Of a DNA stretch of 64,000 nucleotides, positions 11,751 to 61,561 are shown piece after piece. The translations under genes and the position numbers were made by a program. The notes beneath the pieces were generated by a model that was given only the letters and a program-made list of their open reading frames with translations, had not been told where the DNA came from and did not search any database. Positions within the stretch are counted from its first letter, which is position 1, and every line of letters starts with the position of its first letter. This stretch comes from a virus: positions 36,520 through 100,519 of the IMG/VR virus record IMGVR_UViG_3300049844_000277; one strand, written 5' to 3'.

Positions 11751-12380
11751 TTAAGTACCGGCTCCACGGGAACCTCCTTCACAGAACATCATTCGCCGTA
11801 GGTCATCAGCATGCTGCTGGTCAGTAAGGACCATTTGCTCCAGCATGACCTTAAGCGACAAATTATCTCCGGCCATGTCTGACAGATGTCGTAACTCTTC
11901 AATCAATTGCTTCTCAGTTTGTAGAAGAGTCATGAAAATCTGGTGGAGGTCACTCATGTTCGGGATGACACCTACCTTAGGAATAGGTTCTCCGCCTAAC
12001 GCCGTAATCTTCATTGCGAGATGGTAGGCGTCCATCCGCTCTTCTTTGATGTGCTCTTTAAAGTGGTCGTAGATAACATCTCTAAAGTGCGCACGAATAC
12101 GATCGCCATAATTCATATACATGAAGATGATGGTATATTTGTAGCGCAGCAACTTATTACACTGAGCCACTACCTTATCCTGGGCAACCGCGAAGAATCC
12201 TTCCTCGGCCGATACAGCAAGAGGATGAGCACCAGCAGATGCTGTGGCAAGCGGAGGCATGGCGAACATCTCCTCCGTGTGCGGGGATGACTCCATTGTG
12301 TCCGCCATTGGACTGCTAGGAACTGGAAGACTCGAGCCACTCTCAGCCATGGAAGTACCCACTTTGTAGCGCTGCGTCAT
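11751..12380 (-). CDS. Hypothetical helical protein (209 aa) immediately after the rpoB-rpoC fusion; weak ferritin-like E/H spacing
   Basis: Start ATG overlaps the fusion-gene stop (ATGA). Paired E...H residues (KEHIKEERMDAYH, EQMVLTDQQH), but no clean ExxH pairs. Confidence 0.35.
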   Translation of the reverse strand: MTQRYKVGTSMAESGSSLPVPSSPMADTMESSPHTEEMFAMPPLATASAGAHPLAVSAEEGFFAVAQDKVVAQCNKLLRYKYTIIFMYMNYGDRIRAHFRDVIYDHFKEHIKEERMDAYHLAMKITALGGEPIPKVGVIPNMSDLHQIFMTLLQTEKQLIEELRHLSDMAGDNLSLKVMLEQMVLTDQQHADDLRRMMFCEGGSRGAGT

Positions 12381-20887: not shown

Positions 20888-21053
20888 GTTCGTAAGTATA
20901 GACCCTTATTTTGGTATCAGTATATGAGTCACATGCTGTGGCTCATAGAGGGAAGTACCATCACCACCACCAGAGGGGAAGTACAGTGAAAGTGGCAAGG
21001 GTACAGAAGAGGGGTGTAGTAAAAGTAACAACGAGAAAGGAAGTGAGGGCGAG

Positions 21054-22362: not shown

Positions 22363-25300
22363 TTATACAGGCTGATTTTGTTGCGCCATTTGCGCCTTCG
22401 CCTGCTGTCCTTGTTGGTTCTGAAGATCTTCCAGGCGTTGAATGACAACCGCATGCATCACAGCGTCTTCCTTACTTAAGCTATCCAACTGTGAACGCCT
22501 AGAACCAACATCCAGCCCCATGAGCTGCTGCACTATCTGGTCAGCCTGCGCGATGACCGCCTGCTGGTCGTAGTTGAGCCCAGGAGTACCTTGAGCCTGT
22601 AGCTGAACCTGCTGGGACAAGTTATTCTGTAGTTTTCGTAGCTCATTCTGGACGCGCTGATTGTGCCGCGCCTCATCAAGAGTTTCTTGTAGACGCTTCT
22701 CTCGTTCTGCGTCCAAATCAATGTCGAGTCGCTCTAGTATGGTAGTCATTGAGACGTACGAGGGACCCGCTTGCCCGGTAGCCATGCTGAGCAGTAATTG
22801 TTTAGACTCAGTGTCATCGACCATCTTCAAAGGCGTAAGTTTCGCCTCTATCTTCTCCCAGCCAAGATACCGGGACATCTGGTCGCTGTACCACTGTAGT
22901 AGGTCATTCATATCATCCGCGTGCCCTTGCGTTTGATTCTGAATGAGCCGGAGAGTTGCCTCCATGCCTGCTTTAGTTAGTCCACCGTAGAGGAACTCCT
23001 GCGGAATACCTAACGCAGCCATAATGCTCTTCTCAGCTTCTTGAAGCTCACCGAGCGTTAACATCGCCCGTCCATCGCCACCAAGATTGGATACACCAAG
23101 AGCTACTGGTGCCATCATTATGTGTAAGGGGTCACGTCGCCAGCGACGAATATTTTGTTTCATTTCATCTTGCCAACGCGCAAGAGAAATCATTTGCGTA
23201 AAATCTTGCTGTCCGTTTTGTGCGGGATGCAAGATACGCATTGGCACGACGTGCTCCAGCGCGATCGAATTTTTAGTAGCCCCACCCGCGATACAAAACG
23301 TGGAATCCTCCGCGATCTTGAAGTCAATGTATTGTTCCTCTTCCGACTCCTCTACCACGCTCACTCTCGCCGCAAAATAATCTTTCCAGAAAAAGCCACT
23401 CTTGCCGATGGTAATCTCTTCCGCATCCTCCCAATTCCATAGCGCGTAAAGCCGCTCTTGGGACGCACCGCTAACCCGTACGTGGTAACTCGGTCCGTTT
23501 GGGGTAATAACACGCCCATCAGCAAGCGCGTGAATCGGGGTAATGTGCTCACGAATCGTCGCAATACATCCTACGTGAAGGAGCATACGGTAAACATCAT
23601 ACGCAAGGCCCGCACTGGAGGTGGCGAGAGTATCTTGCCCTTCCCGCGTGTGACCATCCGCCTCCCAGAGACCTTTCAAGAATGCGAGCTTTACAGAATC
23701 CGGCGCATGAAATACTTCCGAAGGAACGCGCTTAACGCGCGCGGTTCCCGGAACCATGCCCTTGATGAGAGCCTTCACAATCACATCACACAAGGTAACC
23801 ATGCTACAGTTACCTCTCTGATTGTATCCACCGCACTCCAAGCCAAACTCTCGCCGAATTGCTTCCCGGAGGGGCTCTTCCGTCTTACTGCCCATCGCAA
23901 TCATAACGGTACGCTGGTTACAGGAACCATTTCCAACGTAATGCCCGAGGATATACGCGAAGTCCTCTGTCATCGGGCGCGTCGCGGGGAGGCGTTTTGG
24001 AACGGACCCTTCTTTCAGCTTCCTACGCGCAATCTTCCCAGGGACTCCCTTCACATGCTCACCGGCGCTCTCCGCCTCAAACGCCTGCGCGGAGGGTAAT
24101 GACATCGCGCTGTAAACGTAATTCTCGGTGTTCGCGAAACCGGTGTACTTAGCAACATCTACCTGCTGCGGCTCCGACGGAATTGTCCGGGGGTAGAGGA
24201 TATAATCACCCTTCTCGAACTGTTCCGCGGGACACATCACCTCTTCGTACAAATGCGGATTCTGAAGAATCTCCGACGACGTCTGCTTGTCTTTCGTATC
24301 CGACCGACGTGCGTCGCTTGTCCGTCGAAGGGTAAGGATGGGATGGTGCGGGGAAAATACCCCGCTGAGATGCCGAAGCCCCGAAAGCGTAATACGGCAT
24401 CCGATTTCATCATCCTTCGCATCCCGATACCACTTCTGCTCGACTGGACGCCACCGCCCGAGGTGTGTTCTCACCAAGTCGCCAACACGTACATCATCCG
24501 CGGGCACGAGACCGGTAGACGTCTCAATGAGTGTATCGAGACTGACGCACTCGTTCGCCTTCCTTAGCGTCATGGTGTAGAGGAAGAGCTTGATTGTCGA
24601 CGCAAGCGGAGGAAATCCCCACTGCTGGTCAATACCCGAAGGACTTGGAACCTTGATATGAAAAAGAGCGTCCTTCTCAAAACGAAACGTCTTGTTGTCT
24701 CGAATGTTTTCCAAGAACTCCATAGGCATCGAATTAATAAGATGCTTTGACCCCGATTTAACTTGGTCCTTAACGTCCTGCGGGATGTTATAGTAGTATA
24801 CAGATTGTCCCGTAATCGGATTGTAATCTATATCCATTAGCTTGGGATCCCACCGAATAATATGGACCCGGCTAGCAGCTAGAATCTTACGGTCAACGAC
24901 TGTACCACGCACATCTCGCTTGCAATGCAGGCAGTGGTAGGTGAAAGCCAGCGATTTCAGCTCAAACTTGTAATCAGTGTGCTGAATAGCAACGAGTTGC
25001 TGACAACTAGGACACTTCAGACTACGAACGAACGGCTTATAAATTGATGTAAAATGATTGCCATATATGTGCTTATCGAGCGACGCCATGAGAAGCGCAC
25101 TCTTAATCTTCAAAGTTTTTTCAAAAAGACGGCGATAGTTGCGCCGGAGTGCTTCATTCGATGTTCCGTACTCGAGGTCAGTTACGACGAGCTCTCCAAA
25201 TTTACGCAGAGCCGCGTAAACATGTGCACTATTATACATCAAATATTCGCACCATTTAAAGAGATCTTTTAGCTTTCTTGGTACAAAACCCGTTAGGAAG

Positions 25301-25374
25301 TCATGTGCAGGGTTTGGGTGTGAAGCCGCCCGGTCAAAAACGGACATTGTATCAGTGTTAGGAAGGTCAGCCAT
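22363..25374 (-). CDS. Putative portal / head-tail connector-like protein containing an intein (1003 aa precursor, about 576 aa spliced)
   Basis: Extein has the Q-rich C-terminal tail typical of portals (QQVQLQAQ...QQAKAQMAQQNQPV), and the gene sits first in the structural operon. N-extein has a CPSC...HCLHC zinc ribbon. The portal assignment is tentative. Confidence 0.45.
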   Translation of the reverse strand: MADLPNTDTMSVFDRAASHPNPAHDFLTGFVPRKLKDLFKWCEYLMYNSAHVYAALRKFGELVVTDLEYGTSNEALRRNYRRLFEKTLKIKSALLMASLDKHIYGNHFTSIYKPFVRSLKCPSCQQLVAIQHTDYKFELKSLAFTYHCLHCKRDVRGTVVDRKILAASRVHIIRWDPKLMDIDYNPITGQSVYYYNIPQDVKDQVKSGSKHLINSMPMEFLENIRDNKTFRFEKDALFHIKVPSPSGIDQQWGFPPLASTIKLFLYTMTLRKANECVSLDTLIETSTGLVPADDVRVGDLVRTHLGRWRPVEQKWYRDAKDDEIGCRITLSGLRHLSGVFSPHHPILTLRRTSDARRSDTKDKQTSSEILQNPHLYEEVMCPAEQFEKGDYILYPRTIPSEPQQVDVAKYTGFANTENYVYSAMSLPSAQAFEAESAGEHVKGVPGKIARRKLKEGSVPKRLPATRPMTEDFAYILGHYVGNGSCNQRTVMIAMGSKTEEPLREAIRREFGLECGGYNQRGNCSMVTLCDVIVKALIKGMVPGTARVKRVPSEVFHAPDSVKLAFLKGLWEADGHTREGQDTLATSSAGLAYDVYRMLLHVGCIATIREHITPIHALADGRVITPNGPSYHVRVSGASQERLYALWNWEDAEEITIGKSGFFWKDYFAARVSVVEESEEEQYIDFKIAEDSTFCIAGGATKNSIALEHVVPMRILHPAQNGQQDFTQMISLARWQDEMKQNIRRWRRDPLHIMMAPVALGVSNLGGDGRAMLTLGELQEAEKSIMAALGIPQEFLYGGLTKAGMEATLRLIQNQTQGHADDMNDLLQWYSDQMSRYLGWEKIEAKLTPLKMVDDTESKQLLLSMATGQAGPSYVSMTTILERLDIDLDAEREKRLQETLDEARHNQRVQNELRKLQNNLSQQVQLQAQGTPGLNYDQQAVIAQADQIVQQLMGLDVGSRRSQLDSLSKEDAVMHAVVIQRLEDLQNQQGQQAKAQMAQQNQPV
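23269..24549 (-). mobile_element. Intein (427 aa, LAGLIDADG type) in portal-like protein
   Basis: Starts CVSLDTLIETSTG (classic block A). Motifs ILGHYVGNGS and FLKGLWEADGHT. Ends YIDFKIAEDSTFCIAGGATKN followed by Ser. Boundaries verified on the DNA. Confidence 0.75.
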
Positions 25375-25430
25375 TTGCGGCCCTCAGTCGTTCTTGTTTA
25401 CGCATCCTCAGTATAGCCTTTGGAGAAGGC

Positions 25431-27931: not shown

Positions 27932-28833
27932 TGACCAAAGGCAACGTTCTGGAACAACCTCACGCGACGGGCCCGAAACCCTCACGTACACAAAAACTGT
28001 TACATCAATTAAACGTTAAGGAAGACTTTCTAGACCTTAAGCTACCCAAAGGTTTTTTCTCAAACTCGCAGTACAACAGCTGGCTAATTTGCGGTCGAGC
28101 ATACGAGTTTAAGTACGTAGAGCAAGTTCCTACGCCTGAGTACGCCTCAACAAGCCGTGGAAACGCTGTGCACGCGGGCGTAGAGCACATGCTTCGAGCG
28201 AAGCTCGCTAGCAAGCACACGACAGTAGAGGAAGGTAGAGAAGTAGTAAGTAAGGTATTCGACGAAAAAGCAAAAGGCGTTGTTGATTGGGGCGAAGAAG
28301 AACCCGGTAAGATTAAAGACGTAGCCATACGACTATTTAACACCTACGCAACATACGGATTACCGAAGGTCAATCCCATAGGGATCGAAGAAGGATTCGC
28401 GAAAAAAGTAGGTGACGTACCGATGGTTGGGTGGGTAGATTTAATCGACGAACAACCCGCCGTAGTAACCGCCAACATGGCGGAAGAGGATGCCGCACTA
28501 GCTCCAACACGCTTAATCACCGCAGACCTAAAAACCGGAAAAGCGAAATGGAGCGAAAAGGAAGTAGCACTTGACCCACAGCTGACTCTGTACTCATACG
28601 TAGTCGGAACACCTTATGTGCGTGTCGACCAACTCATCGACCACAAAAAGGCACCGACATTTCTTCAAGCTAACAGCACAAGAACTCCCCGAGATGCTGA
28701 AATTTTGGTAGAGCACGTCAACGAAGTAGCTGACTTCGTAAGAAAAGGAATCTTCCCAAAAACACACATTGATAATTGGGCATGCGACTCCGGGCATTGT
28801 TCGTTCTGGGATCTGTGTAGAGGAAAAAGATAA
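27928..28833 (+). CDS. PD-(D/E)XK nuclease of the RecB/Cas4 family (301 aa) with C-terminal Cys cluster
   Basis: GWVDLIDEQ...ITADLKTGK (DxKTG signature of RecB-family nuclease domains) and C-terminal CDSGHCSFWDLC. Confidence 0.7.
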   Translation: MMTKGNVLEQPHATGPKPSRTQKLLHQLNVKEDFLDLKLPKGFFSNSQYNSWLICGRAYEFKYVEQVPTPEYASTSRGNAVHAGVEHMLRAKLASKHTTVEEGREVVSKVFDEKAKGVVDWGEEEPGKIKDVAIRLFNTYATYGLPKVNPIGIEEGFAKKVGDVPMVGWVDLIDEQPAVVTANMAEEDAALAPTRLITADLKTGKAKWSEKEVALDPQLTLYSYVVGTPYVRVDQLIDHKKAPTFLQANSTRTPRDAEILVEHVNEVADFVRKGIFPKTHIDNWACDSGHCSFWDLCRGKR

Positions 28834-28836
28834 GAG

Positions 28837-29439
28837 ATGTACTGTGCTACATGTAATACTGACTTACCAGAATCCGCGTTCGGAGATAGAGCAGAAACAG
28901 CCTCTGGAAAACGATATTATTGTCGAAAATGCGGAACCAAGAAAAACGTACACTGGCGAAAAAAGAAAGCGGCAGAAGGTTTCTGCTATTCATGCGGTAA
29001 GCGAAAACCTCTTAAAAATAAAACACGGTGTAGGCGTTGCATAGCAATAGCGAAAAAAAGATATCTTGAGAAAACACCTGAAATGCACGCGGAAGCGAAC
29101 CTGAAACAACGAACCAGGTTGGCCGCATTAAAACGGGAAGTTTACGCCGCGTACGGCGGTTATCGCTGCGCCTGTTGTGGTGAAAAACACGAAGAATTCT
29201 TGAGTATTGATCACATAGAAGGAAACGGTAAGCAGCACCGGAAGGAAGTAGGCAGTGGGGGACGCGGTAGTGCGTTGTACAGGTGGCTAAAGAAAAATAA
29301 TTTTCCACCGGGGTTCCAGATTCTGTGCATGAACTGTAACTTTGCGATAGGACACTACGAATCGTGCCCACACAACCCCACGGTAAAAAGAGTAGTTAAA
29401 CGCAGAAGAACCAGGGAACACACATGGCCATCAAGATGA
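28837..29439 (+). CDS. HNH endonuclease with N-terminal zinc ribbons
   Basis: CACCGEKHEEFLSIDHIEGNGKQHRK...ILCMNCNFAIGH (Cys/His-box with HNH spacing); N-terminal CxxC...CxxC ribbons. Confidence 0.7.
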   Translation: MYCATCNTDLPESAFGDRAETASGKRYYCRKCGTKKNVHWRKKKAAEGFCYSCGKRKPLKNKTRCRRCIAIAKKRYLEKTPEMHAEANLKQRTRLAALKREVYAAYGGYRCACCGEKHEEFLSIDHIEGNGKQHRKEVGSGGRGSALYRWLKKNNFPPGFQILCMNCNFAIGHYESCPHNPTVKRVVKRRRTREHTWPSR

Positions 29440-29789
29440 GCATGAAGTGTACTCGTTGTCACCGCGAAGACATCCTCGAGCTGGAGACGCTCGCGGAAGC
29501 CACTGCTCTGGAGGAGCACCAGAAGCGTAAGGCGGTTGTGCTGAAGAAGCTCAAGGACTTCGTAGGAAGTCTTCCCGCAGAAGACCTCCCGGATTTCTTC
29601 GCGGTCCTAGGGGACAAGGTTCTGATTCACGACTACCTGTGCGACCCACAGGATGACTCAAAGCGCTCCTGCGCTAGTCGCGTAAGTGACTTGCTCGCGG
29701 GTGTGAACGAACTCGGCGAGCGTAAGCCGAGAACGAAGAAGGAAAAGGAAAAGGAAAAGGAAAAGGAAAAGACTCCGCAAGCGGCGTAA
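29424..29789 (+). CDS. Hypothetical protein with C-terminal (EK)n repeat (121 aa)
   Basis: ORF ending ...RKPRTKKEKEKEKEKEKTPQAA, encoded by a GGAAAA hexamer tract. Confidence 0.4.
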   Translation: MAIKMSMKCTRCHREDILELETLAEATALEEHQKRKAVVLKKLKDFVGSLPAEDLPDFFAVLGDKVLIHDYLCDPQDDSKRSCASRVSDLLAGVNELGERKPRTKKEKEKEKEKEKTPQAA

Positions 29790-29793
29790 GCGT

Positions 29794-30003
29794 ATGAAAG
29801 AGAGGATCCCTGTGCCGGATACTGAAAAATATGGCGTTGAAGAAGTAGAAAACGCGGAAAAGCTGGCGGAGGAAAACCTAAATACGTGTCCTCGATGCCG
29901 GAGTAAACTTCGTCCGCGCGACGTCACAGGGATCCTCTTGTGTTTGAAATGTGGTACCTTACCTTTTGAGGCTACGGACCATGGCACTCCGAAGTCTCGC
30001 TAA
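29794..30003 (+). CDS. Small zinc-ribbon protein (69 aa)
   Basis: CPRCRSKL...CLKCG four-Cys ribbon. Confidence 0.4.
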   Translation: MKERIPVPDTEKYGVEEVENAEKLAEENLNTCPRCRSKLRPRDVTGILLCLKCGTLPFEATDHGTPKSR

Positions 30004-30275
30004 AAATTCGGCTAGAGTTCAGCGAAAACTAGCCGCGCAGCAGCATCTCATCTACAAGCTCAAAGCCATACGAGCTTTATGGGTTACAGCCCATAATACG
30101 CCGCAGGCGATTGAGAAAATGGAACGAGAGTTTCTTTTTCTTGTAGGTGAGATAGTGGAAGGTACCCCTGTAGAAAAACTTGTTATGATCAACATAAACA
30201 AGTCAGCCTTTCTACGGGAATTTAACGACGGATAGCGTTCCCATTCAGCTAAAACACCGTACATGGAGGAGCCAC

Positions 30276-31250
30276 ATGGCTGCCGCCGAAAAACCTGTAT
30301 TGCCTACGTGGACCAAACCGAACCTCGTGACTATTGAACCAACACCGAGGAACCCTCCGAAGCTCATTGAACTCGCGGTCAAGGATATCCTCACGAAAGC
30401 GGGAGACAATATCCGAACAGGAGAACTTCCCGATATTGAAGAGCTTGCCAAGAGTATCAAAGCCGAAGGATTGCTAGAACCAATCATCGTTACTGCCGCA
30501 GAGACGCCGGGAAAGTACTCGGTGATTGCAGGGCACCGCCGACTGACCGCCGTTCGAAGCTTGGGCGAAGAATCTGTCCCTGCGTTGGTAGTAGATGCGG
30601 ATAGCAATCGACGCATCAAGCTAGCGCTCATCGAAAACATCCAACGAAAGGACATGGCTCCGTTGGATAAAGCGAAGGCGTTCGCGAAGCTCATCAAAAA
30701 TACAGGGCTGGAGCAGCAGCAAGTGGCTCAGGCTATCGGAGTTGCCCCAGGATACGTCTCACAATATTTGACTCTCCTCGCGCTACCGGAATCAGCTATC
30801 TCTGCGCTTCGAGATGAAACGCTTTCATTCACACAAGCGCGAGTTCTTTGCCGACTACTTCCGCACATAAAAGAAATCGACGCCCTAGTACTCGAAGCCT
30901 CCAACCTTACCGCTGCCGCGATGGAGACAAAGGTTGCGCATATCCTTGGGACGCTCAAAGCATCGAAAGCTGAAGCTGAAGCTGAAGCCGATGCTGAAGA
31001 TGATAAGGTAAACCCTGAGGATGCGGACGGACGTCCGAAGAAGAAGAGAGTAGCTAAGACCGTGGTACCCGATAAAGCAGTCGAGTATTACGCCGAAGCG
31101 GACTTCCATCCGCTCAAGAAAGAAGACATTCGGGAACTGATGGTCAGCTACAAGCGAAAAGAAGTAAACGCTGAGAGCGAGAAAAAGAGAGAAGAGTATC
31201 GCCTGATTCTCAAGGGAATCACGTTAGCAGCGGATCTTCGTCTTAAGTGA
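30276..31250 (+). CDS. parB: ParB/Spo0J-like partition or nuclease-domain protein
   Basis: ParB-box IAGHRRLTAVRSLG; LIENIQRKDMAPLDKAKAF; HTH GLEQQQVAQAIGVAPGYVSQYLTLL. Confidence 0.8.
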   Translation: MAAAEKPVLPTWTKPNLVTIEPTPRNPPKLIELAVKDILTKAGDNIRTGELPDIEELAKSIKAEGLLEPIIVTAAETPGKYSVIAGHRRLTAVRSLGEESVPALVVDADSNRRIKLALIENIQRKDMAPLDKAKAFAKLIKNTGLEQQQVAQAIGVAPGYVSQYLTLLALPESAISALRDETLSFTQARVLCRLLPHIKEIDALVLEASNLTAAAMETKVAHILGTLKASKAEAEAEADAEDDKVNPEDADGRPKKKRVAKTVVPDKAVEYYAEADFHPLKKEDIRELMVSYKRKEVNAESEKKREEYRLILKGITLAADLRLK

Positions 31251-31259
31251 AGAGATTCA

Positions 31260-32093
31260 CTACTCAAGAAAAACATCTTGAGACGTTTCTACTTGATTTG
31301 CCAATAAGTATGTCTTGATTTGCGCGAGAGTGTCCTTCTTAATCTGCCGGACACGTTCAGAAGATAAATCTACTCTTCTGGAAATCTGCCGGAGATTTTT
31401 AGGCTCTTCTCTCGCGCCGTAATACGCCAGGACAATATATTTATCTCGTTCGCGTAGAGATAAGTTATCTAACGCACGACGTAACATAGTAAGGCCGTAC
31501 GTATTCACTAAATCACGTTCTAAGCTCACATCGCAGTGTCCAGCTACGTCAATAGCGCCAACAGCATCCAACGTAACGTGCGGCTGCTCTACATCAACAC
31601 CGCCACCACTCTTACGTTGCGCTCTTAACGCTTTCTGCTTATGGGCAGGGACACGAATAATTCCTTGACTATCTAACTCCTCTAGTATTTTCTCGCGAAC
31701 CCACCACGCAGCGTATGTAAGAAACTTAGTATTGCGTGAGGTATCAAAACGATCCGCCGCGACTAGAAGTCCTACGTTACCGGCGGATATCAGTGACGTC
31801 AATAGTTCGTTGTCGAACTTTGGTCCCTTAGTGCGATAAGCATATTCTTTCGCTACTTTCACAACAAAGCGAAGGGCTCCCGAAATAAGTCGATCACGCG
31901 CTTTAAAGTTTCGCGGAGTATTACACCTAGGACATCGGGTAGCTGAAGATCCCAAGCTATACGAAGACCTGCACGCAGAACAAGTGCGGTAGGCCTTTAC
32001 TAGATCGCGTTCCTCTCGTTGAGGAATGAATTCATTACCACGTAAATCAGCGAAATAAGCCGAGACTACACGGTCATTGTCCATTGGGTTCAT
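31260..32093 (-). CDS. Sigma-70 family RNA polymerase sigma factor with N-terminal zinc-ribbon insertion
   Basis: Region 2.2 GNVGLLVAADRFD; region 2.3/2.4 FLTYAAWWVREKILEEL; region 4 LSLRERDKYIVLAYYG...LRQISRRVDLSSERVRQIKKDTLAQIK. Inserted CSACRSS...CPRCN. Confidence 0.8.
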   Translation of the reverse strand: MNPMDNDRVVSAYFADLRGNEFIPQREERDLVKAYRTCSACRSSYSLGSSATRCPRCNTPRNFKARDRLISGALRFVVKVAKEYAYRTKGPKFDNELLTSLISAGNVGLLVAADRFDTSRNTKFLTYAAWWVREKILEELDSQGIIRVPAHKQKALRAQRKSGGGVDVEQPHVTLDAVGAIDVAGHCDVSLERDLVNTYGLTMLRRALDNLSLRERDKYIVLAYYGAREEPKNLRQISRRVDLSSERVRQIKKDTLAQIKTYLLANQVETSQDVFLE

Positions 32094-32206
32094 TTTTAAA
32101 CGATCCTCGTTTTAGTGCTGGAAATAGTCAGAAGCTGGGAGTAAGGTGCCCGAGCAATCAACGCAACGAAACCAACAACTAATCCACAAATCAAGAAAGC
32201 ATAACA

Positions 32207-33250
32207 ATGGCTAAGAACAAAGACGTGACCCCCGCCGCGGAACCGGCCGTAATCGTTAATCCGCCGAACGCGACTTCCGCTATCGTCAAAACTGAAGAAA
32301 GCGGGTCTTCGGAGTTCGCTGCGCGCAAAGCTTTGGCCATGCGACTACCCGAAGCCATTCGACCTCGGGCCATGATGTTGAAGCGTCCTACGCCGAATGA
32401 GCTCATGGAGATTGTCATGAACCTTCCTGAGAATAGCCAGGAAGCGATGATGACTCTGGTGGCCAAGACTAACCCAGAGAAGCAGGGGTTGCACACCTCG
32501 TCTAGCGGCTTCGAGCCAACCGCGTTGAAGGTTTACCACGGTACCGGTAACGACCCCATTAGACCCCGACAAACGCTCCCAGGTCAATTCTACTCCGCGG
32601 ACTCTCGGGTTATCGGTGAGAAGTTCAACGCCGTTCCTCTGGCAATCTATGAGGGACACATCCTATGGCCAGAGAAGACCAAGGATTCCAACGAGAGTAA
32701 AGCACCTATCTGCGTTTCAGTCGACCGTAGGATGGGGAGCAAATACGGAAACTGCGACGCTTGTCCGCTTCACCCAAACCTTCGTCCGTATGCGCAGGGT
32801 GGGTGCATGCGAGAAATAACTGTGTACCTCCTCGACCAAGACATGACGTCCATCTACGAGCTCAAGTTCAGTAAGACGAGCGAGGGTGCCGGTAAGGCGC
32901 TCATGGGTGTCATGAAGAAGTCCAACTTCCTCTGGGAGCGCTGGTTTACCTTCGAGGCGAAGGAGCGAGTCGACAAGGGTAACAAGTGGTACATCATTCA
33001 GTCTAGTCCTGTTGCCGATGCTACAAAGGCAATCACGGATACGAAGTTCCATCCGCTATTCAACGCGCTCTCAAAGGTCATTGACGCGGACATCTACTAC
33101 ACGCAGATGGCGAACATCTATGACCGCGCTCGTAACAGTCCTGACTCGAGTGAATCGGTGGTAAACGCCACCCCGGTCGTAGCGTTCGATGAGAAGGCGT
33201 TTCTGAAGAGCGATACCGACGCCGTCCCGGATTACTCCAAGAACGTCTAA
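32207..33250 (+). CDS. Hypothetical protein (347 aa)
   Basis: Long intact ORF in the replication module; CDACPLHP...GGCM Cys motif; no assignable family. Confidence 0.5.
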   Translation: MAKNKDVTPAAEPAVIVNPPNATSAIVKTEESGSSEFAARKALAMRLPEAIRPRAMMLKRPTPNELMEIVMNLPENSQEAMMTLVAKTNPEKQGLHTSSSGFEPTALKVYHGTGNDPIRPRQTLPGQFYSADSRVIGEKFNAVPLAIYEGHILWPEKTKDSNESKAPICVSVDRRMGSKYGNCDACPLHPNLRPYAQGGCMREITVYLLDQDMTSIYELKFSKTSEGAGKALMGVMKKSNFLWERWFTFEAKERVDKGNKWYIIQSSPVADATKAITDTKFHPLFNALSKVIDADIYYTQMANIYDRARNSPDSSESVVNATPVVAFDEKAFLKSDTDAVPDYSKNV

Positions 33251-33288
33251 GCAATTATCGTCGTAACTAACAGGAGGGCGGGGCTCAT

Positions 33289-34128
33289 TTGAGCTCCGCT
33301 CTACCTGTCTGTGTCATTACAAAGGACGCGCACATGTCTTTACCCCTGCCCGAGTACGTACTGAAAGGCATGCCGTGGTCCATCTCTAAGGCGGGGGTAG
33401 TATCTAAGTGCTCCCAGCAATACGAATACAAATACGGCCCGCTAAGAAGAACGTACATTGAAGAAACGTCTTCTTCTGAGGAGAGCCGTATCGGAATCGC
33501 AGTACACCAAGCACTAGAGTTCAGCTTAGACAGGATTCCTGTAAAGCAAGCCTTCCAATTCGCCGCCGACAAGAATGAGCTCACGACTAACGAAGTAGAA
33601 AAGATCAAAAGTTTCTACGACCAAGTCACTCGCTTCGTCGCGTTCATCGAACGCTTTAAGGCAAAGTACGGAGTAAAGCCACAAAACGTACTCATCGAAT
33701 ACCGGATGGGGTTATCTCCGGAGTTCAAGCATACGTCATTCAACGATGACAGCGGACTATTCCGGGGCGTAATAGATTTGATGATGATAACCGAACAAGG
33801 TGACGCGGTAATCATCGACCACAAAACCGGAAAACAAAAAGAGATGTCGATGTACGAGGACCAGTGCAAAGCTTACTGCATCCTTGCTTTAGCCCTGCGC
33901 CCTGAACTCAAGGGAGTTCAAACAGCGATCAACTTCGTACAAACCGACCAGGTTAAGTGGAACTCCCGAGTAACCGCGGAAACTATCCGTGAAAAGTACT
34001 ACCCATGGCTCGTCGATTTCCTAACGCAAGCCTGTGCTGCGCTACAGAATCCTCCCCAGCCTAATGAGGGTTGGTGGTGTGGCTGGTGTGGATACAAAGA
34101 TACGTACTGCCCCAAATTCAAAAAATAA
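33289..34128 (+). CDS. Second PD-(D/E)XK RecB/Cas4-like nuclease (279 aa) with C-terminal Cys cluster
   Basis: GVIDLMMITEQGDAVIIDHKTGK (DxKTG signature) and C-terminal WWCGWCGYKDTYC. Confidence 0.65.
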   Translation: MSSALPVCVITKDAHMSLPLPEYVLKGMPWSISKAGVVSKCSQQYEYKYGPLRRTYIEETSSSEESRIGIAVHQALEFSLDRIPVKQAFQFAADKNELTTNEVEKIKSFYDQVTRFVAFIERFKAKYGVKPQNVLIEYRMGLSPEFKHTSFNDDSGLFRGVIDLMMITEQGDAVIIDHKTGKQKEMSMYEDQCKAYCILALALRPELKGVQTAINFVQTDQVKWNSRVTAETIREKYYPWLVDFLTQACAALQNPPQPNEGWWCGWCGYKDTYCPKFKK

Positions 34129-34143
34129 CCGCACGAGCTACTC

Positions 34144-37100
34144 GTGCCCACAACCCGAGGAGCTCTCATGGAGAAGCCCGCAGAAATCTGCAGCGGATGT
34201 CCTCGAGAAATCGAGACAGAGACCCATCCCTACGGTTATGTTGAATCGTGGATTGATTCAAACGCCGAACTCATCATCATAGCGGAAGCTCCTGTCTGCG
34301 ATCGCCACGGTAACGTTCCTAGCTCTTTCGACGATGACAGCGGTAAAATCATTCGAACCGCCGTATCCGAGCTACGTAACTTACCTTCGCACAGTAAGCT
34401 AGCGGTCTCGTATACGTACGCAGTACTCTGTACAAGCAACCAGGGCGACAAAGACCCCGAAAAAGCCGTACTGCAACGGTGCCGTACGCTGCTCCAAGCT
34501 GACTTACGTCGCGCAAACAAGAACGCCGTCCTGCTGGTAATGGGTATGTCTGCCCTTCGCGCACTAGAAATAAAAGCCGCGAAGTTGAAGGACATGCAGG
34601 GGCGATTACTCCAAAAGCAGAAAATTGGAGAAGGTGATGACGCTCCGATATTCGATGTCGTCGTAACCGTCTCGACAAAACAGTTGTTCGCGATGCCGGG
34701 AATCTACACGACGTTCGTAGCGGACCTGCGACGAGCTGCGGACGCTGCGAGCGCAGGTGGATTAACACACGTTACCCCACTCGAAAAACTAACCGAAAAA
34801 TACGTAATCCCGAAAACAATCGAAGAAGTACGCCAAATCTGTCGCGAAATACTGAATTATCAAGAAGGTAAAGTATCTGCAGATAACTGGCCTATCTCTG
34901 TAGACACCGAGACAAACACCAAGTTTCCACACCGAGAAAACTTGAAAGTATTGGCGGTGTCCTTCGCATGGGCGGAGGGTAAAGCTACTGCAATTCCATT
35001 AGAGCACCCCACTACACCCTACGCGTACCAAGACGCGATACCGTACGTACGCGAAGTCTTAGCGAGCAAGAAGCCGAAGTTCCTTCATAATGCTAAGTTC
35101 GACCTTAAAGTCTTCATGAAAGCGGGCTGGCCGATTAACGGGTTCGCTTGGGATAGCATGCTAGGGGAACATGCTCTCGAAGAAGATAAAAAGGGACAGT
35201 ACGGATTAAAGCAGTTGACCCGTACTTTCTTCCCGGAATTCGCGACATACGCCGACTCTCTTCAAGAAATGCTCACGCACGAAGAGGGCGACTCGCAGCT
35301 CGACAACCTGAGGAAAGCGCCAAAAGCTTCAACTTCGAAAGATGGGGGATTTGAAAGTATCCCACTTCCCACGCTATTGCTTTATGCGGCAGTCGATGCA
35401 GATATGACACGGCGGCTAGTGTTACTGCAGGAAAAAAGAATTACCGACGAGCAGAACAGAGTAATCGTAGAAACGAATATAACGAAGAGAGAGCAGGCGC
35501 TGGCGATTTCGGCGAGGAAGAAAATACGGCTGAGAATTGCGCCGCTACATAGTGAGACGGAGATGTTGAAGAAGTACATGGTGCTCTACCCCGTCCCAGA
35601 ACTCTGTTCCGCTGATAAGCCGGTAAGACAACTAGTACTGAACAACGTATTCCCCGTTACCCCAGCTCTCGCGAGAATGGAGTTTAAGGGCATACGGATA
35701 GACAGACCGTACCTAACTACGTTGCGTGAAGCGTTGGGAAAAGTCGTCACAGAAACCGCTGCAGAGCTACAGGATATGGCGGGCAGAGAGATAACTCTCA
35801 ATAGTCCGGCAGAGATAGCTGAAATCCTGTTCAACAGCGGGTTTATACATCCAACAACTCACGCCCCCACGACTTATCCCCTCACAGGCATCGGTAAGAC
35901 AAAAACGGGACAGATACAAACCACCGAGAAAGTGATGCAGTACTTGGTGGCGAAGTATCAGTGCCCCTTTGCAGCTAAAAAACTAATCTACGCCAAGGCA
36001 TATAAAGCGAAAAATACGTTCTGTCAGAATGTGTGGGATCTCTCGGAGCTCGACGGGTATCTACACACGAACTACAACCAGCACGGCACAAATTCGGGTA
36101 GACTGTCCTGTGTCGCGGGAGAAACCGTACTAGATACTAATTACGGAAAAATCGAGATACAGAATCTCGATCTGGAGAAGATGCCGGGGATTACCATCCA
36201 GACCCACGAACTCCGCGAACAACCGATTCTACGTAAAATAGAAAAAGGCATTGAAGAAATGTTCGAGGTCGAACTCGAAGACGGGCGCACCATCACCGTG
36301 ACTAAAAAACATCGCTTCTTGACGCCGACGGGGTGGAAACGACTCGAGGAACTGTCAGAAAATGCCGAAATACTCTGCGCCGCCTCCGTGGGTAGTGGAC
36401 CAAATATGCGACTCGTTACAACCCGGATAAAAAGCATACGTCCCGTAGGTCCTAAGAAAGTCTGGGACCTCACAGTAGCGGTCGATCACTCTTACATCGC
36501 CCACGGATTTGTTAACAAAAATTCCAACGATGAAAACATGCAAAACATCCCCAAGAAATTGGCGGGTGTTAACATTAAGAAAGTGTTCCTCCCGGACGAT
36601 GATTCGTATGTCTTCGTCAACGCTGATGCGAAGGGTGCCGAAGTACGAATCCTAACCGCCTACTGCCGAGACCAAGCGCTCATACAATCGCTCAACGCGG
36701 GGCAGGACACGCATTGTTTCATCGCGTCCAAGATTGTTGAAATCGTACGTCAGAGTCCTGGTGCAACGGCGGTTCTCGGAAGCATGAATCTAAGCGATGA
36801 GTATCCTCTGACGTACGAAGACTTCGCGGCTAGAGACAAGCTAAAAGAAACCAATAGTAAGTACGGGGCGATGCTCGACAAATTCAGAACCGCTGTCAAA
36901 CGCGTAGTGTTCGGTATTCTGTACGGCGCCGGTCCTCAGAAAATTGCGGAAACTATTGGTATCAGTCTAGAGCAAGCACAACAGCTCATTCACACTCTGT
37001 TCGCTTTGTTTCCGTCCATCAAGACGTACATGGCGCAGACAAAGTGGGAACTACAACAATTTAATTTAGTCGAAACGTTCTTCGGTAGACGCCGTAGATT

Positions 37101-37527
37101 TAGTGTATCGGGAGCGCCGAAGTATCAAATAGGGAGAGCTGAACGTCAGACAGTTAATTTTAAAATCCAAAGCACAAGCTCTGATATCGTAATGGGACGA
37201 TTACTAGCAATCGAAGAACCTCTCAAAGATTTGGGAGGTAGACTTCTATTGACAGTGCACGACAGCCTTGGGTTTCAAATCAAGAAAAAATATATCCGAC
37301 AGCTACCTGATTTCATTTATACGTATTTGGAGAAGGGTGCAGCAGACGCCCATCCATGGCTCCCAGTCGCATTTAAATGGGACTACGAAGTTGGGTCATC
37401 ATACGGCGAACTCAAATCACTGGAATCCTACCTTGCCAACACGAAAATAGAGGAATACTCGAACGATGCCTACGTCGCCGAGGCTTTCACAGAAGAAGAC
37501 GCAAGAACCTCCCTCTCCGAACCCTGA
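34144..37527 (+). CDS. polA: Family A DNA polymerase (Pol I-like) with N-terminal UDG-like domain and 3'-5' exonuclease domain, carrying a mini-intein
   Basis: UDG family-4-like ELIIIAEAPVCDRHG...FDDDSGKIIRTAV. Exo I SVDTETNT; Exo II FLHNAKFDLKVF; Exo III LLLYAAVDAD. Motif A NADAKGAEVRIL; motif B KRVVFGILYGAG; motif C LTVHDSLGF. GRLS/SNDENMQNIP split by the intein. Confidence 0.9.
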   Translation: MPTTRGALMEKPAEICSGCPREIETETHPYGYVESWIDSNAELIIIAEAPVCDRHGNVPSSFDDDSGKIIRTAVSELRNLPSHSKLAVSYTYAVLCTSNQGDKDPEKAVLQRCRTLLQADLRRANKNAVLLVMGMSALRALEIKAAKLKDMQGRLLQKQKIGEGDDAPIFDVVVTVSTKQLFAMPGIYTTFVADLRRAADAASAGGLTHVTPLEKLTEKYVIPKTIEEVRQICREILNYQEGKVSADNWPISVDTETNTKFPHRENLKVLAVSFAWAEGKATAIPLEHPTTPYAYQDAIPYVREVLASKKPKFLHNAKFDLKVFMKAGWPINGFAWDSMLGEHALEEDKKGQYGLKQLTRTFFPEFATYADSLQEMLTHEEGDSQLDNLRKAPKASTSKDGGFESIPLPTLLLYAAVDADMTRRLVLLQEKRITDEQNRVIVETNITKREQALAISARKKIRLRIAPLHSETEMLKKYMVLYPVPELCSADKPVRQLVLNNVFPVTPALARMEFKGIRIDRPYLTTLREALGKVVTETAAELQDMAGREITLNSPAEIAEILFNSGFIHPTTHAPTTYPLTGIGKTKTGQIQTTEKVMQYLVAKYQCPFAAKKLIYAKAYKAKNTFCQNVWDLSELDGYLHTNYNQHGTNSGRLSCVAGETVLDTNYGKIEIQNLDLEKMPGITIQTHELREQPILRKIEKGIEEMFEVELEDGRTITVTKKHRFLTPTGWKRLEELSENAEILCAASVGSGPNMRLVTTRIKSIRPVGPKKVWDLTVAVDHSYIAHGFVNKNSNDENMQNIPKKLAGVNIKKVFLPDDDSYVFVNADAKGAEVRILTAYCRDQALIQSLNAGQDTHCFIASKIVEIVRQSPGATAVLGSMNLSDEYPLTYEDFAARDKLKETNSKYGAMLDKFRTAVKRVVFGILYGAGPQKIAETIGISLEQAQQLIHTLFALFPSIKTYMAQTKWELQQFNLVETFFGRRRRFSVSGAPKYQIGRAERQTVNFKIQSTSSDIVMGRLLAIEEPLKDLGGRLLLTVHDSLGFQIKKKYIRQLPDFIYTYLEKGAADAHPWLPVAFKWDYEVGSSYGELKSLESYLANTKIEEYSNDAYVAEAFTEEDARTSLSEP
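36109..36522 (+). mobile_element. Mini-intein (138 aa, no endonuclease domain) in the PolA GRLSS-NPNLQNIP motif
   Basis: CVAGETVLDTNYGKIEI...KKVWDLTVAVDHSYIAHGFVNKN followed by Ser. Excision restores TNSGRLS-SNDENMQNIP, matching the family-A consensus. Boundaries verified on the DNA. Confidence 0.8.
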
Positions 37528-38297: not shown

Positions 38298-38793
38298 CCT
38301 GTAGATACGTAAAATCTTTGTTCCAGTACATCTGGAGTCAGCGTAGCGCTGACATGCTTCCCAGAGCTCTTAGTTTGGTAGCCTAGCTAACAAATATAAG
38401 GTCAATGGCCGCCGGGGAAAAATGAACTCCCTGAACCCCACCGAGCTCGAGCAAACAATAAATATATAGTAGAACATAGAAAGATCTTTCCTGCCCGGTA
38501 CCATTTCGGAGTCAGCGTAGTGCTGACATATGGCCCGATGTTAGCGCGAAGCCTAGCTTCAAGCTAAGAGAAGGTCATTATGGGCCGCCTCCGCCTCAAG
38601 GGCAATATCCTTAAGTATGTGGCGCCTATATTGGACATTCCGCGGAATCATAGAACTAAGAGGAAAGACGTAGGGAGCGTAGGGATTCGAGCTGTAAACA
38701 CAGCGCCCGCGTAGTGCGGGCAGCCGTAAGCTGTTCAGATAAGCTATGAGATAAGCTTGAAATCAACCATATCCTCACTGAATGAGGAATCCC
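38298..38793. repeat. About 500-bp noncoding region with two copies of a roughly 90-bp hairpin-containing repeat and further hairpins
   Basis: GGAGTCAGCGTAGCGCTGACAT at about 38333 and GGAGTCAGCGTAGTGCTGACAT at about 38509 (7-bp stem, TAG loop). Each is followed by related ...agcctagct...aaggtcaatggccgcc segments. Also GCCCGCGTAGTGCGGGC (about 38703) and TCCTCACTGAATGAGGA (about 38773) hairpins. Lies between convergent genes. Confidence 0.6.
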
Positions 38794-40398
38794 TTACGCG
38801 TAGAATTTCAGGTCATTAGACACAAGCTTATGTGCAAACCATCCGAACAGTTGTGCATGAAGACAATCGTCAGGTAATTGGGGACTGTGTCGCCAAACCT
38901 TTTTACCTGACGACGTAACTTCTTCATAGACGTTCAGAATATCTTTAATCGCTTCACGTGATTCTTCTCGTGGCGGATATACAACCGAACCCCGCTTCAG
39001 AAACATGAGATAGTTATCAATCATCGTCGTGCGGTCAGCGAGATACCTGTCCAAGCCATTGTGCTTTATCGGCTGACCTAACGCTCCGTACTGCATCATG
39101 TGCACGCGGTGAGCGCCTAGACGGTCTCGTAGCGTCGCATTAGGTAGTGCGCCTTCGCCAGCGTCACCGATGACCATCGCAACAGCGTAATGCTGGCAAA
39201 TCGCAGCGATATTCTCGACATCTGCGACGGCGTTGCTTCCTGGGTAAATTCGGAAGTAGAGCGTACGTAACTTCTGTGTTGCGGGATGAAAGCCCCACAC
39301 CCATAGGACCGTACGGCTAACGCCCGTCGTTCCGCCGCCCGACCAATCAACGCCGGCAACAGTAATCGAACAGCCTTCCAAATTTTTACCTGGCGTAGGG
39401 GATATCTGGGGGCCTGTGCACAGTGCTTCGAGCTCCTCCAGTGAAATAAGTCTACGACCTACGGCATCTGATACACCCAAGACCTCATTGCGGAACTTAG
39501 CCGCGGAAAACATGTCATGGTCACGGAGGATATCATCCCAACGCGCCTGAGCGTCCTCGACTGCACTCGGCTTTTCGGGCGTATTTTTTACACACGACGG
39601 GATGTTCAGCGGCATAATCAATTGAGAAATGTGAAAGCCTTTAATGGAGTGTTTTCCAGTACCCTTGTCGGCAATACGCATATCGATCCACTGCCCTGCG
39701 CGGGGATTTAAAACCTTCCCACAATTAAGACAAATGGGGCCGTGTTTACCGAGAGACTTCTCACTAATAACGAAGTTGTATTTACTACACCCCTCGCACT
39801 TCATCACCCATTCGCTCTGAGAAGACTGATCCCACAAAAATTGAATGGAGTTCTCCATAGTTTTCGGAGTTCCGGCGTAAGTTTCGAACCGGTACGCGGA
39901 ATTCTTCATACACGCCAAAATTACGGGAATGACACTGTCGTATAATACGTCCTGTACTTCGTCAAACAAACAACGGTCAGCGGAAAAACCACGCGCACGA
40001 TCCGCGTCATCGGTCGCGTACGTGAACCCGTTCTCTGACCCGTTCGTATACGACCGATGTAATACGCGATCCGCGTGATCTGGAGATAAGAAGTATTTCT
40101 TAATCAACGGCGAATACGACAATGTTTTACCAACACGCGTGTTAGAGAACAAGAGAGTTTGCTCGCGTGAAGGACTGGAATAGTAACTCTTGAAAAATGG
40201 GCGAGAAACAGATTCAGATATAATAAAGTTAGCCAGAGATGTGCTTTTACTGACCTGACGCGCAGTCATCAGAAGCGTCGATTTATAACCTCCGTCATAT
40301 ATCGATTTGAAAAATGGATAGTCTGTAAGACTAAAGGGAGCGCCGTCTAGCCATAATAGACGCTCAGCCACTTCCGAAAGACGTTTACTTCCAATCAC
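38794..40398 (-). CDS. terL: Terminase large subunit (ATPase plus RNaseH-like nuclease) with zinc-ribbon insert
   Basis: Walker A LLMTARQVSKST; Walker B CLFDEVQDV; YAGTPK coupling motif; CEGCSKYNF...CLNCGK ribbon; nuclease-domain GVDWSGGG...MVIGDAGEG. Confidence 0.85.
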   Translation of the reverse strand: MIGSKRLSEVAERLLWLDGAPFSLTDYPFFKSIYDGGYKSTLLMTARQVSKSTSLANFIISESVSRPFFKSYYSSPSREQTLLFSNTRVGKTLSYSPLIKKYFLSPDHADRVLHRSYTNGSENGFTYATDDADRARGFSADRCLFDEVQDVLYDSVIPVILACMKNSAYRFETYAGTPKTMENSIQFLWDQSSQSEWVMKCEGCSKYNFVISEKSLGKHGPICLNCGKVLNPRAGQWIDMRIADKGTGKHSIKGFHISQLIMPLNIPSCVKNTPEKPSAVEDAQARWDDILRDHDMFSAAKFRNEVLGVSDAVGRRLISLEELEALCTGPQISPTPGKNLEGCSITVAGVDWSGGGTTGVSRTVLWVWGFHPATQKLRTLYFRIYPGSNAVADVENIAAICQHYAVAMVIGDAGEGALPNATLRDRLGAHRVHMMQYGALGQPIKHNGLDRYLADRTTMIDNYLMFLKRGSVVYPPREESREAIKDILNVYEEVTSSGKKVWRHSPQLPDDCLHAQLFGWFAHKLVSNDLKFYA

Positions 40399-44239: not shown

Positions 44240-44251
44240 GAGTATAGGCGG

Positions 44252-46728: not shown

Positions 46729-47331
46729 ATGGACCTCTACTGTCTTCGTGTTCGTAGGAACATCGCTGGACGTAAATTTCCCTTCGATAGAGTGTATCTC
46801 GCGAAATACGGGGATCACGTTATATTCAAAAGATTATTCAGGTATGCCTTCATCCTTCCCGTTGAAGGCGTACTAAAGGAAACGCTGTACTGTCTCCCCA
46901 TTGAAGACAGCATGACGCACGCATTCGACAGAGTAGAAACGCCTGAGAAAATTCCAGATGTAGAGTGGAAGACGCTCATCGACTCGACGGACTGGGTACT
47001 CGCGGTACCGATTCTATCGAAGTACGTGACCGCTAACATGCCGAGATATATTATTGCCAAGTCCACGGTGCCCCGAAGAGACAAGAAAAACTCTAACGCG
47101 TGCGCAAACCCGTTTCCAAACATGACGTACTTGCAGACACCCGAGCAAAACATTCGGCCAATATGTGTCGCATGTCCGAACTTTATCCAGCATCAGAACG
47201 GTCACTGCGAACTTGGAGATAAGCTCTGCTACGACTCTCTTTCCCTGGGAATCCGAAATCACTTTGAAGAAGGCATGATGGTTCCTCCTGCCCCGGAAAA
47301 AGAACAAGTGACTGAGGAGGGGAACGACTAA
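46729..47331 (+). CDS. Cys-rich hypothetical protein (about 200 aa), first gene of the RT operon
   Basis: ATG at 46729 after the terminator (the track ORF begins earlier, at 46630, inside the CT tract). CVACPNF...HCELGDKLC. Stop overlaps the RT start (TAATG). Confidence 0.5.
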   Translation: MDLYCLRVRRNIAGRKFPFDRVYLAKYGDHVIFKRLFRYAFILPVEGVLKETLYCLPIEDSMTHAFDRVETPEKIPDVEWKTLIDSTDWVLAVPILSKYVTANMPRYIIAKSTVPRRDKKNSNACANPFPNMTYLQTPEQNIRPICVACPNFIQHQNGHCELGDKLCYDSLSLGIRNHFEEGMMVPPAPEKEQVTEEGND

Positions 47332-61396: not shown

Positions 61397-61561
61397 TTCT
61401 TAGTTTAGTTCATTTTGAGTAGGCTTAATTCCTTGGCGACTGTTACGGAATATCCTGAAATTCTTGTCCGGTACCCGCGACGTTGACAACTTCATGCCGC
61501 TGCCCGGTTAGGTTTGTGATGGATAGTCGTACCATGTAGAGAGTATAGCTATACTCCCTCC

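Follow-up and report, generated by a model that had tools for sequence, protein, structure and literature searches.

A sigma-70-family factor with a predicted zinc ribbon in a tailed phage that encodes its own multisubunit RNA polymerase

Introduction

According to published surveys, phage multisubunit RNA polymerases come without sigma homologues, and it is phages without a polymerase that carry sigma factors, which are directed to the host (Iyer et al. 2021, PMC7824862; a 2026 review, PMC13282480). Here we describe a locus in a 64,000-nucleotide (nt) stretch of viral DNA, positions 36,520 to 100,519 of the IMG/VR record IMGVR_UViG_3300049844_000277 (hereafter the window, in whose own numbering all positions are given), where a sigma-70-family factor with an inserted four-cysteine (Cys4) ribbon is encoded together with an RNA polymerase's beta and beta' subunits. 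By its sequence the element is a tailed phage. Given that a true sigma-70-family factor accompanies a bacterial-type polymerase in its clade, which is widespread and uncultivated, it represents a third arrangement beside the two already reviewed. We lean, with some reserve, towards the view that this sigma would be the promoter-specificity subunit of the phage's own polymerase and that the ribbon would be a built-in stabiliser.

Several phage systems invite comparison. T4 gp55, SPO1 gp28 and the "group 2" jumbo-phage sigmas are phage-encoded specificity factors too, but they belong to phages that have no polymerase of their own. phiKZ gp68 and AR9 gp226 are specificity subunits of polymerases and, unlike the sigma described here, have no sigma-70 sequence similarity. 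The mReC phages (Weinheimer and Aylward 2020, PMC7481178) are uncultivated Caudoviricetes whose beta and beta' are recognisable by cellular profiles, as they are here, and the window carries the hallmarks of that group, namely a TerL matching PHROG 675 (E 2.4e-41) together with beta and beta' matches to cellular profiles. The main text of the mReC paper makes no mention of sigma, inteins, ParB or a missing zinc domain (PMC7481178). In the full-text literature that we searched, the coverage of which is incomplete so that novelty is not proven, no description of a ribbon-bearing sigma accompanying a phage polymerase was found.

Results

A sigma-70-family protein that passes no subgroup cut-off

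A sequence-only reading of this DNA, made without database searches, had assigned positions 30276-32093 to a sigma-70-family factor. The sigma gene does lie inside this span (Table 1), but the span covers two genes, the other being ParB-like. Profile searches confirmed the encoded protein as a member of the sigma-70 family: the Pfam models Sigma70_r2 (PF04542) and Sigma70_r4 (PF04545) match residues 74-143 (E 4.1e-9; 36.5 bits, cut-off 24) and 212-260 (E 4.2e-9; 36.2 bits, cut-off 24.1), both above their cut-offs. The protein also matches PHROG 351, "RNA polymerase sigma factor" (E 1e-27), and passes the broad NCBIfam superfamily model TIGR02937 ("sigma70-ECF"; 70.5 bits against 42.9). A PDB search with a profile of 25 homologues returned RpoS, SigB and HrdB/SigA chains at E of about 1e-26, and the top Foldseek matches of the AlphaFold2 model were group 1 and group 2 sigmas. 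All the motifs quoted in the sequence-only reading are present in the open reading frame (ORF), including CSAC (residues 38-41), CPRC (54-57), GNVGLLVAADRFD (105-117), FLTYAAWWVREKI (124-136) and the helix-turn-helix (HTH) at the C-terminus.

By its NCBIfam scores the protein fits no named sigma subgroup; the equivalog and subfamily cut-offs were all missed widely and the superfamily model alone was passed. Against the group 1 (RpoD/SigA) equivalog RpoD_Cterm it scored 76 bits, where the cut-off is 354, and a Pfam search of the ORF gave no match to region 1.1, nor any to region 3 at E<=0.1. The group 2 equivalogs gave 94 against 378.7 bits (RpoS, TIGR02394) and 78.7 against 464 (SigB, NF005920), and the group 3 models 54.9 against 189.6 (TIGR02479) and 54.9 against 298.65 (SigK). 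As for group 4 (ECF), the broad superfamily model is passed, yet a region 1.2-like helix, a WW dyad and a region 3.0 helix are present. No second sigma paralogue was found in the window.

The Joint Genome Institute gene call for this sigma (P0042, 200 amino acids) is identical to residues 78-277 of the window protein and begins at an internal codon, whereby region 1.2 and the ribbon are lost. Given that the first 77 residues are conserved at the protein level, we consider the 277-residue form to be real. Since the public annotation begins internally, database entries can hide the zinc ribbon.

The domain architecture was further described from alignments and the AlphaFold2 model. At the N-terminus the SigB/HrdB profile alignment begins at residue 10, the model has helices at residues 3-18 and 25-36, and Y13, E28, L31 and Y35 are invariant in the 25 homologues. 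The melting residues of region 2 are kept, F124, Y127, W130 and W131 aligning with E. coli F427, Y430, W433 and W434. A full sigma-3 domain is absent according to the model, in which one helix (residues 150-161) stands between region 2.4 and the linker, and the predicted local distance difference test score (pLDDT) falls below 50 in segments spanning residues 163-187. In region 4 the -35 readers are kept (E246, R247, R249 and Q250, read from the sequences as E. coli E585, R586, R588 and Q589), and the alignments show changed -12 and extended -10 readers (Q437 to E134, T440 to L137 and E458 to K154).

A conserved Cys4 ribbon at the junction of regions 1.2 and 2.1

The Cys4 module lies N-terminal to region 2, just as the sequence-only reading had placed it, between the region 1.2-like helix and region 2.1. 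This site is the position of the non-conserved region (NCR) of primary sigmas. C38, C41, C54, C57 and R61 are invariant in the 25 homologues (46-85% identity), and the sole other Cys is not conserved. The AlphaFold2 block-mean pLDDT is 83-93 over approximately residues 20-140, ribbon included, and 86-91 in the 10-residue blocks over residues 31-70. The Pfam double-zinc-ribbon model DZR remained sub-threshold (14.4 bits, cut-off 27.3), so that the assignment as a zinc ribbon is based on the structural model and on the pattern of conserved Cys.

The order PolA, unk347, sigma, (ParB), SNF2 helicase, p576, p165, RNA polymerase beta recurs in loci L001-L042 and L045, a syntenic set of approximately 40 metagenomic phage contigs with a sigma identity of 28-85%. 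Every syntenic locus with an extracted sigma ORF has one or two ribbons, L045 excepted. In the subclade of the window (type A) a single ribbon occupies the 1.2/2.1 junction, and in type B two tandem ribbons are found there. Type C has a canonical 1.2/2.1 turn and a single CxxC-N13-CxxC ribbon between region 2.2 (VDRY) and region 2.3 (RFLTYAAWW), and the sigma of L045 only is ribbon-free (type D). In type A (25 homologues) the ribbon, of about 27 residues, has a net charge of +2 to +7, and in type C the charge is +3 to +11. Types A and B were monophyletic in crude neighbour-joining trees of SNF2 and p576, as was type C in the p576 tree; the type C SNF2 sequences fell below the coverage filter and were left out of the SNF2 tree.

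Outside this set the module is rare, in agreement with the sequence-only reading that a zinc ribbon is not a standard sigma feature. None of 18 sigma ORFs from non-syntenic phage contigs has a CxxC motif, and Cys pairs were absent from all 10 cellular sigmas inspected (chosen among the 80 best loci in 185,579 genomes, one per species), including those matching furthest into the N-terminal region. The best cellular match is 35% identical over residues 65-261 only, and most matches begin near residue 64, past the ribbon. A profile search of 1.84 billion cluster representatives returned 38,157 sigma-like clusters at E<=1e-10 and 84 at E<=1e-30; of the best 150 representatives, about 20 carry all four Cys at the 1.2/2.1 junction and 3 a ribbon in the 2.2/2.3 loop, so that the module is present in only a few dozen of the representatives. 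The ribbon is thus confined to this phage clade among the sigmas examined and is absent from the cellular genomes searched.

This distribution bears on what the ribbon may do. If it were a nearly neutral, lineage-specific structural insertion that staples the 1.2/2.1 helix turn and has no separate function, its lack in the L045 lineage would be readily understood, and cellular sigmas do tolerate inserts of very different size at the NCR site. Against this, deeply diverged homologues all keep R61 and the four Cys, one subclade has a duplicated module and another has it at a different site of that surface, and other sigma clusters essentially lack it; we therefore regard neutrality as most improbable. 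The differing copy number and insertion point between subclades would rather count as selection on the module, in favour of a stabilising role.

Another explanation takes the ribbon as a regulatory or docking module, either a switch that responds to zinc or redox state or a binding site for a regulator of phage or host, such as an activator or anti-sigma factor. Redox sensitivity is possible in Cys4 sites, the same sigma-2 patch docks RbpA, Crl and GcrA, and stand-alone zinc-ribbon ORFs are located nearby (28837-29439 and 29794-30003). However, in the loci examined the ribbon type is not matched by a co-varying partner gene, the steady net positive charge fits nucleic-acid contact better, and the ZAS-type HxxxCxxC motif is absent from the sigma, and we judge such a module to be quite unlikely.

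A phage polymerase that lacks the beta' zinc domain and retains the sigma docking sites

Pfam and NCBIfam searches supported the earlier statement that the phage has beta and beta' of its own (Table 1). Beta is fused to the N-terminal part of beta', as in all related loci, and the C-terminal part of beta' is a separate chain. Three inteins, the boundaries of which were read from the sequence, interrupt the fusion; without them it has 1606 residues, compared with 1604 in an intein-free orthologue. The InPase domain inserted in the beta part is also found in L001 and is absent from the L045 lineage.

Both sites at which a sigma docks are retained. The spliced beta' part is collinear with positions 174-550 of bacterial beta' (E 5e-47), including the clamp helices that bind sigma region 2.2, and the beta part aligns to bacterial beta through the flap (E 3e-37), with the flap-tip helix LSASDALLGNLKK present. 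By contrast with bacterial beta', in which about 99 residues precede the HIEL motif, the phage protein has about 46, and its first 140 residues contain at most one Cys in 42 of 42 related loci (L066-L107, 32-85% identity). A short link motif that replaces the zinc domain is matched in 32 of these 42, and the domain is likewise missing from the L045/L188 lineage. On these alignments the N-terminal zinc-binding domain of beta' is lost throughout the clade.

The conserved neighbours were screened for further subunits, and no alpha or omega subunit or known fold was found among them (ORFs of 209, 119, 138, 149, 165, 223 and 419 amino acids, p576, p166, p243 and unk347). Around intein 3 the window polymerase departs from its relatives. 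The residue before this intein is Asn (AAC; 14135-14140, codons 2250-2251), in the position of the third catalytic Asp of intein-free orthologues (NADYDGD-TFQ), and the intein ends in Asp, not Asn; an intein at the same site in L092 keeps Asp at -1.

In the syntenic loci the sigma is always a lone gene on its own strand, about 10 kilobases (kb) from the polymerase genes. It is conceivable that the sigma, in the manner of T4 gp55, SPO1 gp28 and the sigmas of polymerase-less jumbo phages, steers the host's RNA polymerase towards phage promoters and that the phage polymerase uses another, unrecognised specificity factor. Such a division would follow the published pattern, in which phage sigmas serve the host and phage multisubunit polymerases use non-sigma factors (PMC7824862, PMC13282480), and it agrees with the closeness of this sigma to ordinary bacterial group 1 and group 2 sigmas, with its largely canonical -10 and -35 reading residues, and with the conserved unknowns that flank the polymerase genes (p576, p165, p243-like). 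However, the linkage of sigma and polymerase genes is clade-wide, the ribbon is limited to the polymerase-linked clade, and the retention of both docking sites by the phage enzyme would be unexpected if it used no sigma. We consider host redirection possible but doubtful.

Candidate promoters

Two TATACT hexamers resembling -10 elements precede the polymerase gene, in the same arrangement as in L001 and L017. TATACT hexamers, usually with gc in front, are over-represented in intergenic DNA; in the window 6 of 15 are intergenic and aimed at downstream genes, and one of these ends 6 nt upstream of the ATG at 61562. With hexamers only 7 and 6 nt from the respective ATG, leaderless mRNAs are predicted for the polymerase gene and ORF 61562. 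The gcTATACT sequence, the only element that recurs, looks like an ordinary host -10 box and could serve a host sigma as well as the phage sigma; since the elements are host-like, early expression of the polymerase probably needs the host enzyme.

K-mer enrichment in upstream regions of the window was weak, and a consensus scan around the sigma gene gave no canonical sigma-70 promoter. A CTAC-N19/20-CAAG element is common to the relatives in the sigma/unk347 intergenic region, the window copy being degenerate (TTAC...CAGC). Neither CTTG-N19/20-GTAG nor TTG...TAnnnT variants were enriched in the window, and for lack of such enrichment CTAC-N19/20-CAAG is taken as locus-specific and not as a phage-wide promoter. 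AGAACGA/TCGTTCT was considered as a promoter motif and rejected, being mostly intragenic.

Proposed role of the phage sigma and its ribbon

In the reading that we prefer, the phage polymerase would consist of the beta::beta'-N fusion and the separate beta'-C chain, with the phage sigma as specificity subunit. Of the sigma, region 2 would bind the clamp helices of beta' and region 4 would bind the flap tip of beta. F124, Y127, W130 and W131 of region 2.3 would melt a TAnnnT-type -10 element, and the conserved residues of region 4.2 would read a TTG-type -35 element. The basic, 27-residue ribbon would touch the DNA backbone just upstream of -10, the beta' clamp, or both, and may partly offset the loss of the zinc-binding domain from beta' and the reduction of sigma-3. 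The ribbon is proposed as a stabiliser of sigma-2 because both insertion points fall in regions of the activator patch and because the modules are basic.

Several points weigh against this proposal. Zinc binding by the ribbon is a prediction. Promoter motif discovery, which the sequence-only reading had suggested as a check, yielded no phage-wide motif attributable to the phage sigma. In the L045/L188 lineage beta' has no zinc domain, yet the sigma has no ribbon; since this lineage is without both modules, the ribbon is not strictly required by the beta' deficit, and a strict coupling of the ribbon to the loss of the beta' domain was rejected. A literal replacement of the beta' zinc domain is also unlikely, because the ribbon, on sigma-2, is tens of angstroms away from where the beta' domain canonically lies, next to sigma-4. 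Finally, with Asn in the position of the third catalytic Asp, the spliced product may read NADYDGN, so that the window polymerase copy may be impaired, unless the splicing chemistry is unusual.

The sequence-only reading had also taken the phage sigma and polymerase to form a largely self-contained transcription apparatus. The conserved linkage of sigma and polymerase and the retention of both sigma docking sites favour such an apparatus, and the idea is tempered by the lack of alpha and omega among the ORFs screened and by the host-like -10 elements before the polymerase gene. A bolder variant would have a zinc module transferred out of the core enzyme into the initiation factor, with loss of the otherwise universal beta' domain and with the sigma ribbon or ribbons taking over promoter grip or sigma-beta' clamping in a three-chain holoenzyme without alpha and omega. 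This we think unlikely.

Neighbouring genes and other features of the window

The coordinates of the features are collected in Table 1.

Table 1. Positions of the sigma gene, the polymerase genes and other features in the window
Feature	Positions	Strand	Details and basis
Sigma-70-family gene	31260-32093	-	277 amino acids, ATG start; Pfam, PHROG, PDB profile, Foldseek
Region 1.2-like helices, residues 8-36	31986-32072	-	SigB/HrdB profile alignment, AlphaFold2
Predicted zinc ribbon insertion, residues 37-63	31905-31985	-	CSAC-N12-CPRC; conserved Cys, pLDDT
Regions 2.1-2.4, residues 64-143	31665-31904	-	With F124, Y127, W130, W131; Pfam Sigma70_r2, RpoS alignment, invariant columns
Region 3.0-like single helix (residues 146-161, RVPAHKQKALR), then disordered 3.2-like linker (residues 162-188)	31530-31658	-	AlphaFold2
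Region 4 with HTH, residues 189-265	31299-31529	-	Pfam Sigma70_r4, RpoS alignment
ParB-like gene	30276-31250	+	324 amino acids; Pfam ParB_N and HTH_ParB, PHROG ParB families
unk347, divergent from sigma	32207-33250	+	347 amino acids; position conserved in nearly all syntenic loci
Sigma/unk347 divergent intergenic region	32094-32206	.	113 nt; manual comparison of 12 orthologous regions
Fused RNA polymerase beta::beta' N-terminal gene	12377-20887	-	2836 amino acids, spliced product 1606; Pfam, NCBIfam
RNA polymerase beta' C-terminal subunit gene	9086-10885	-	599 amino acids; Rpb1_5 7.6e-19; TIGR02386 positions 552-1071, E 6.5e-56
Intein 1, residues 930-1283	17039-18100	-	In beta GDKL|TGRHGNKG motif
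Intein 2, residues 1745-2122	14522-15655	-	In beta'
Intein 3, residues 2251-2748	12644-14137	-	Inside catalytic NADYDGD loop
InPase domain in beta part, residues 583-720	18728-19141	-	PF18823, annotated inorganic pyrophosphatase, E 1.6e-32
Site of beta' N-terminal zinc-binding domain	16223-16288	-	Cys-free link GGLFDPAVTGGTTGTRWSHIEL; alignment
Two TATACT -10-like hexamers upstream of polymerase gene	20895-20900, 20919-20924	-	Proximal ends 7 nt before ATG
Other intergenic TATACT	25410-25415, 44241-44246, 61542-61547 (-), 61550-61555 (+)
Large terminase	38794-40398		PHROG 675, E 2.4e-41

The ParB-like protein scored above both Pfam cut-offs (ParB_N 5e-17, 62.2 bits; HTH_ParB 1.4e-15, 57.8 bits), which places it in the ParB family. 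Its gene had been described as divergent from the sigma gene, which is wrong, as the two genes converge tail to tail with 9 nt between them. ParB adjoins the sigma in nearly all syntenic loci and is absent in L003 and L007. On the other side, unk347 is the first gene of a run of unk347, a PD-(D/E)XK nuclease and PolA; its product had no match in Pfam, PHROG or NCBIfam. Small Cys-rich ORFs, all on the plus strand, lie between the PD-(D/E)XK nuclease and ParB (28837-29439, 29424-29789 and 29794-30003), one of them being a 69-residue stand-alone zinc ribbon whose TFIIB-type and double-zinc-ribbon matches are weak and below threshold. A palindrome, TTTAC-N3-5-GTAAA, recurs between the SNF2 helicase and p576 genes in L001, L003, L009, L013, L014, L016 and L018; the window keeps only one half of it at 25375-25430, and it may be an operator.

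Directly downstream of the polymerase gene, with a 4-nt overlap, is a ferritin-like gene (PF00210, E 4e-11; 11751-12380, minus strand). A highly conserved unknown protein at 22363-25374 (minus strand) has 1003 amino acids, compared with 576 in L001, and shows Hint and LAGLIDADG matches. PolA (34144-37527, plus strand) has 1127 amino acids, compared with 971 in L001, the extra segment looking like a mini-intein after GRLS. Altogether at least 5 inteins occur within 25 kb.

The window also encodes an endonuclease VII, a primase, a helicase, PolA and an anti-repressor-like gene. A DNA search of positions 28000-35900 against 50,697 deposited phage records found no similarity, and at the protein level the matches in the same records were all below 31% identity. 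Sigma homologues are numerous in metagenomes, on contigs of up to 190 kb. In a representative library outside the window, the 7852-amino acid protein P0266 contains a sigma-like segment at 3131-3353 (E 2.8e-28).

In 496 nt of non-coding DNA beside the terminase gene (38298-38793) a unit occurs twice, spaced by 174 nt (38334-38355 and 38508-38529), both times with the hairpin GTCAGCGTAGYGCTGAC. The stretch gave no Rfam or tRNA match and may represent a small RNA or a site for packaging. A cluster of CTGAATAYCC-like repeats in both orientations (55795-56042), just downstream of the helicase gene, is iteron-like and may point to an origin of replication or to sites where ParB binds. Both ARAGORN and Rfam found a tRNA-Asn (GTT) at 62183-62257 on the minus strand; as this tRNA lies inside it, ORF 62116-62463 is probably not a gene. 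A reverse-transcriptase-like polymerase is encoded at 47331-48467 on the plus strand (PHROG 2825, E 2.6e-32).

Discussion

In this phage clade the sigma carries a change that is both conserved and evolvable, placed on the surface used by cellular activators, and its proposed partner enzyme has no beta' zinc domain. If the three chains form an active holoenzyme, they would make up a compact, orthogonal, sigma-dependent transcription system. It would also be a natural experiment on the need for the beta' zinc domain, the sigma NCR and alpha, and a route to test the exchange of initiation-factor modules between subunits.

The best sequence and fold matches of the phage sigma are RpoS, M. tuberculosis SigB and HrdB/SigA. 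With group 1 and group 2 sigmas it shares a region 1.2-like helix, regions 2.1-2.4 with FxTYAxWW, a region 3.0 helix with a conserved His and a region 4.2 E-R-x-R-Q HTH. It differs from them in having no region 1.1 and no complete sigma-3, in carrying a zinc ribbon in place of the short turn or NCR, and in being encoded near a phage polymerase.

The NCR of sigma-70 contacts DNA at -16/-17 and beta' (PMC7403470). It has the same 1.2/2.1 insertion point as the ribbon, for which a similar contact role is proposed, but the E. coli NCR consists of about 245 helical residues and the phage ribbon is a Cys4 module of 27, and the two have no sequence relationship. RbpA, Crl and GcrA bind a patch of regions 1.2, NCR, 2.1 and 2.3 and stabilise the holoenzyme and the open complex, and RbpA also bridges sigma to the beta' zinc domain (PMC7403470). 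These activators are separate proteins that act in trans on cellular enzymes, whereas the phage module is fused into the sigma and the beta' zinc domain is missing. Streptomyces RbpA binds zinc.

The beta' zinc domain itself is a neighbour of sigma-4 and is able to touch spacer DNA at -25/-26, and an attempt to obtain an E. coli strain without it failed (bioRxiv 10.1101/2020.01.02.893370). In being a small and basic Cys4 module within the initiation complex it resembles the phage sigma ribbon; however, it belongs to another subunit and to another place, beside sigma-4 and the RNA exit channel and not on sigma-2, and one phage lineage is without both. In archaea and eukaryotes, TFB and TFIIB carry a zinc ribbon on the initiation factor, which would be a parallel in outline if a zinc module had moved to the phage sigma.

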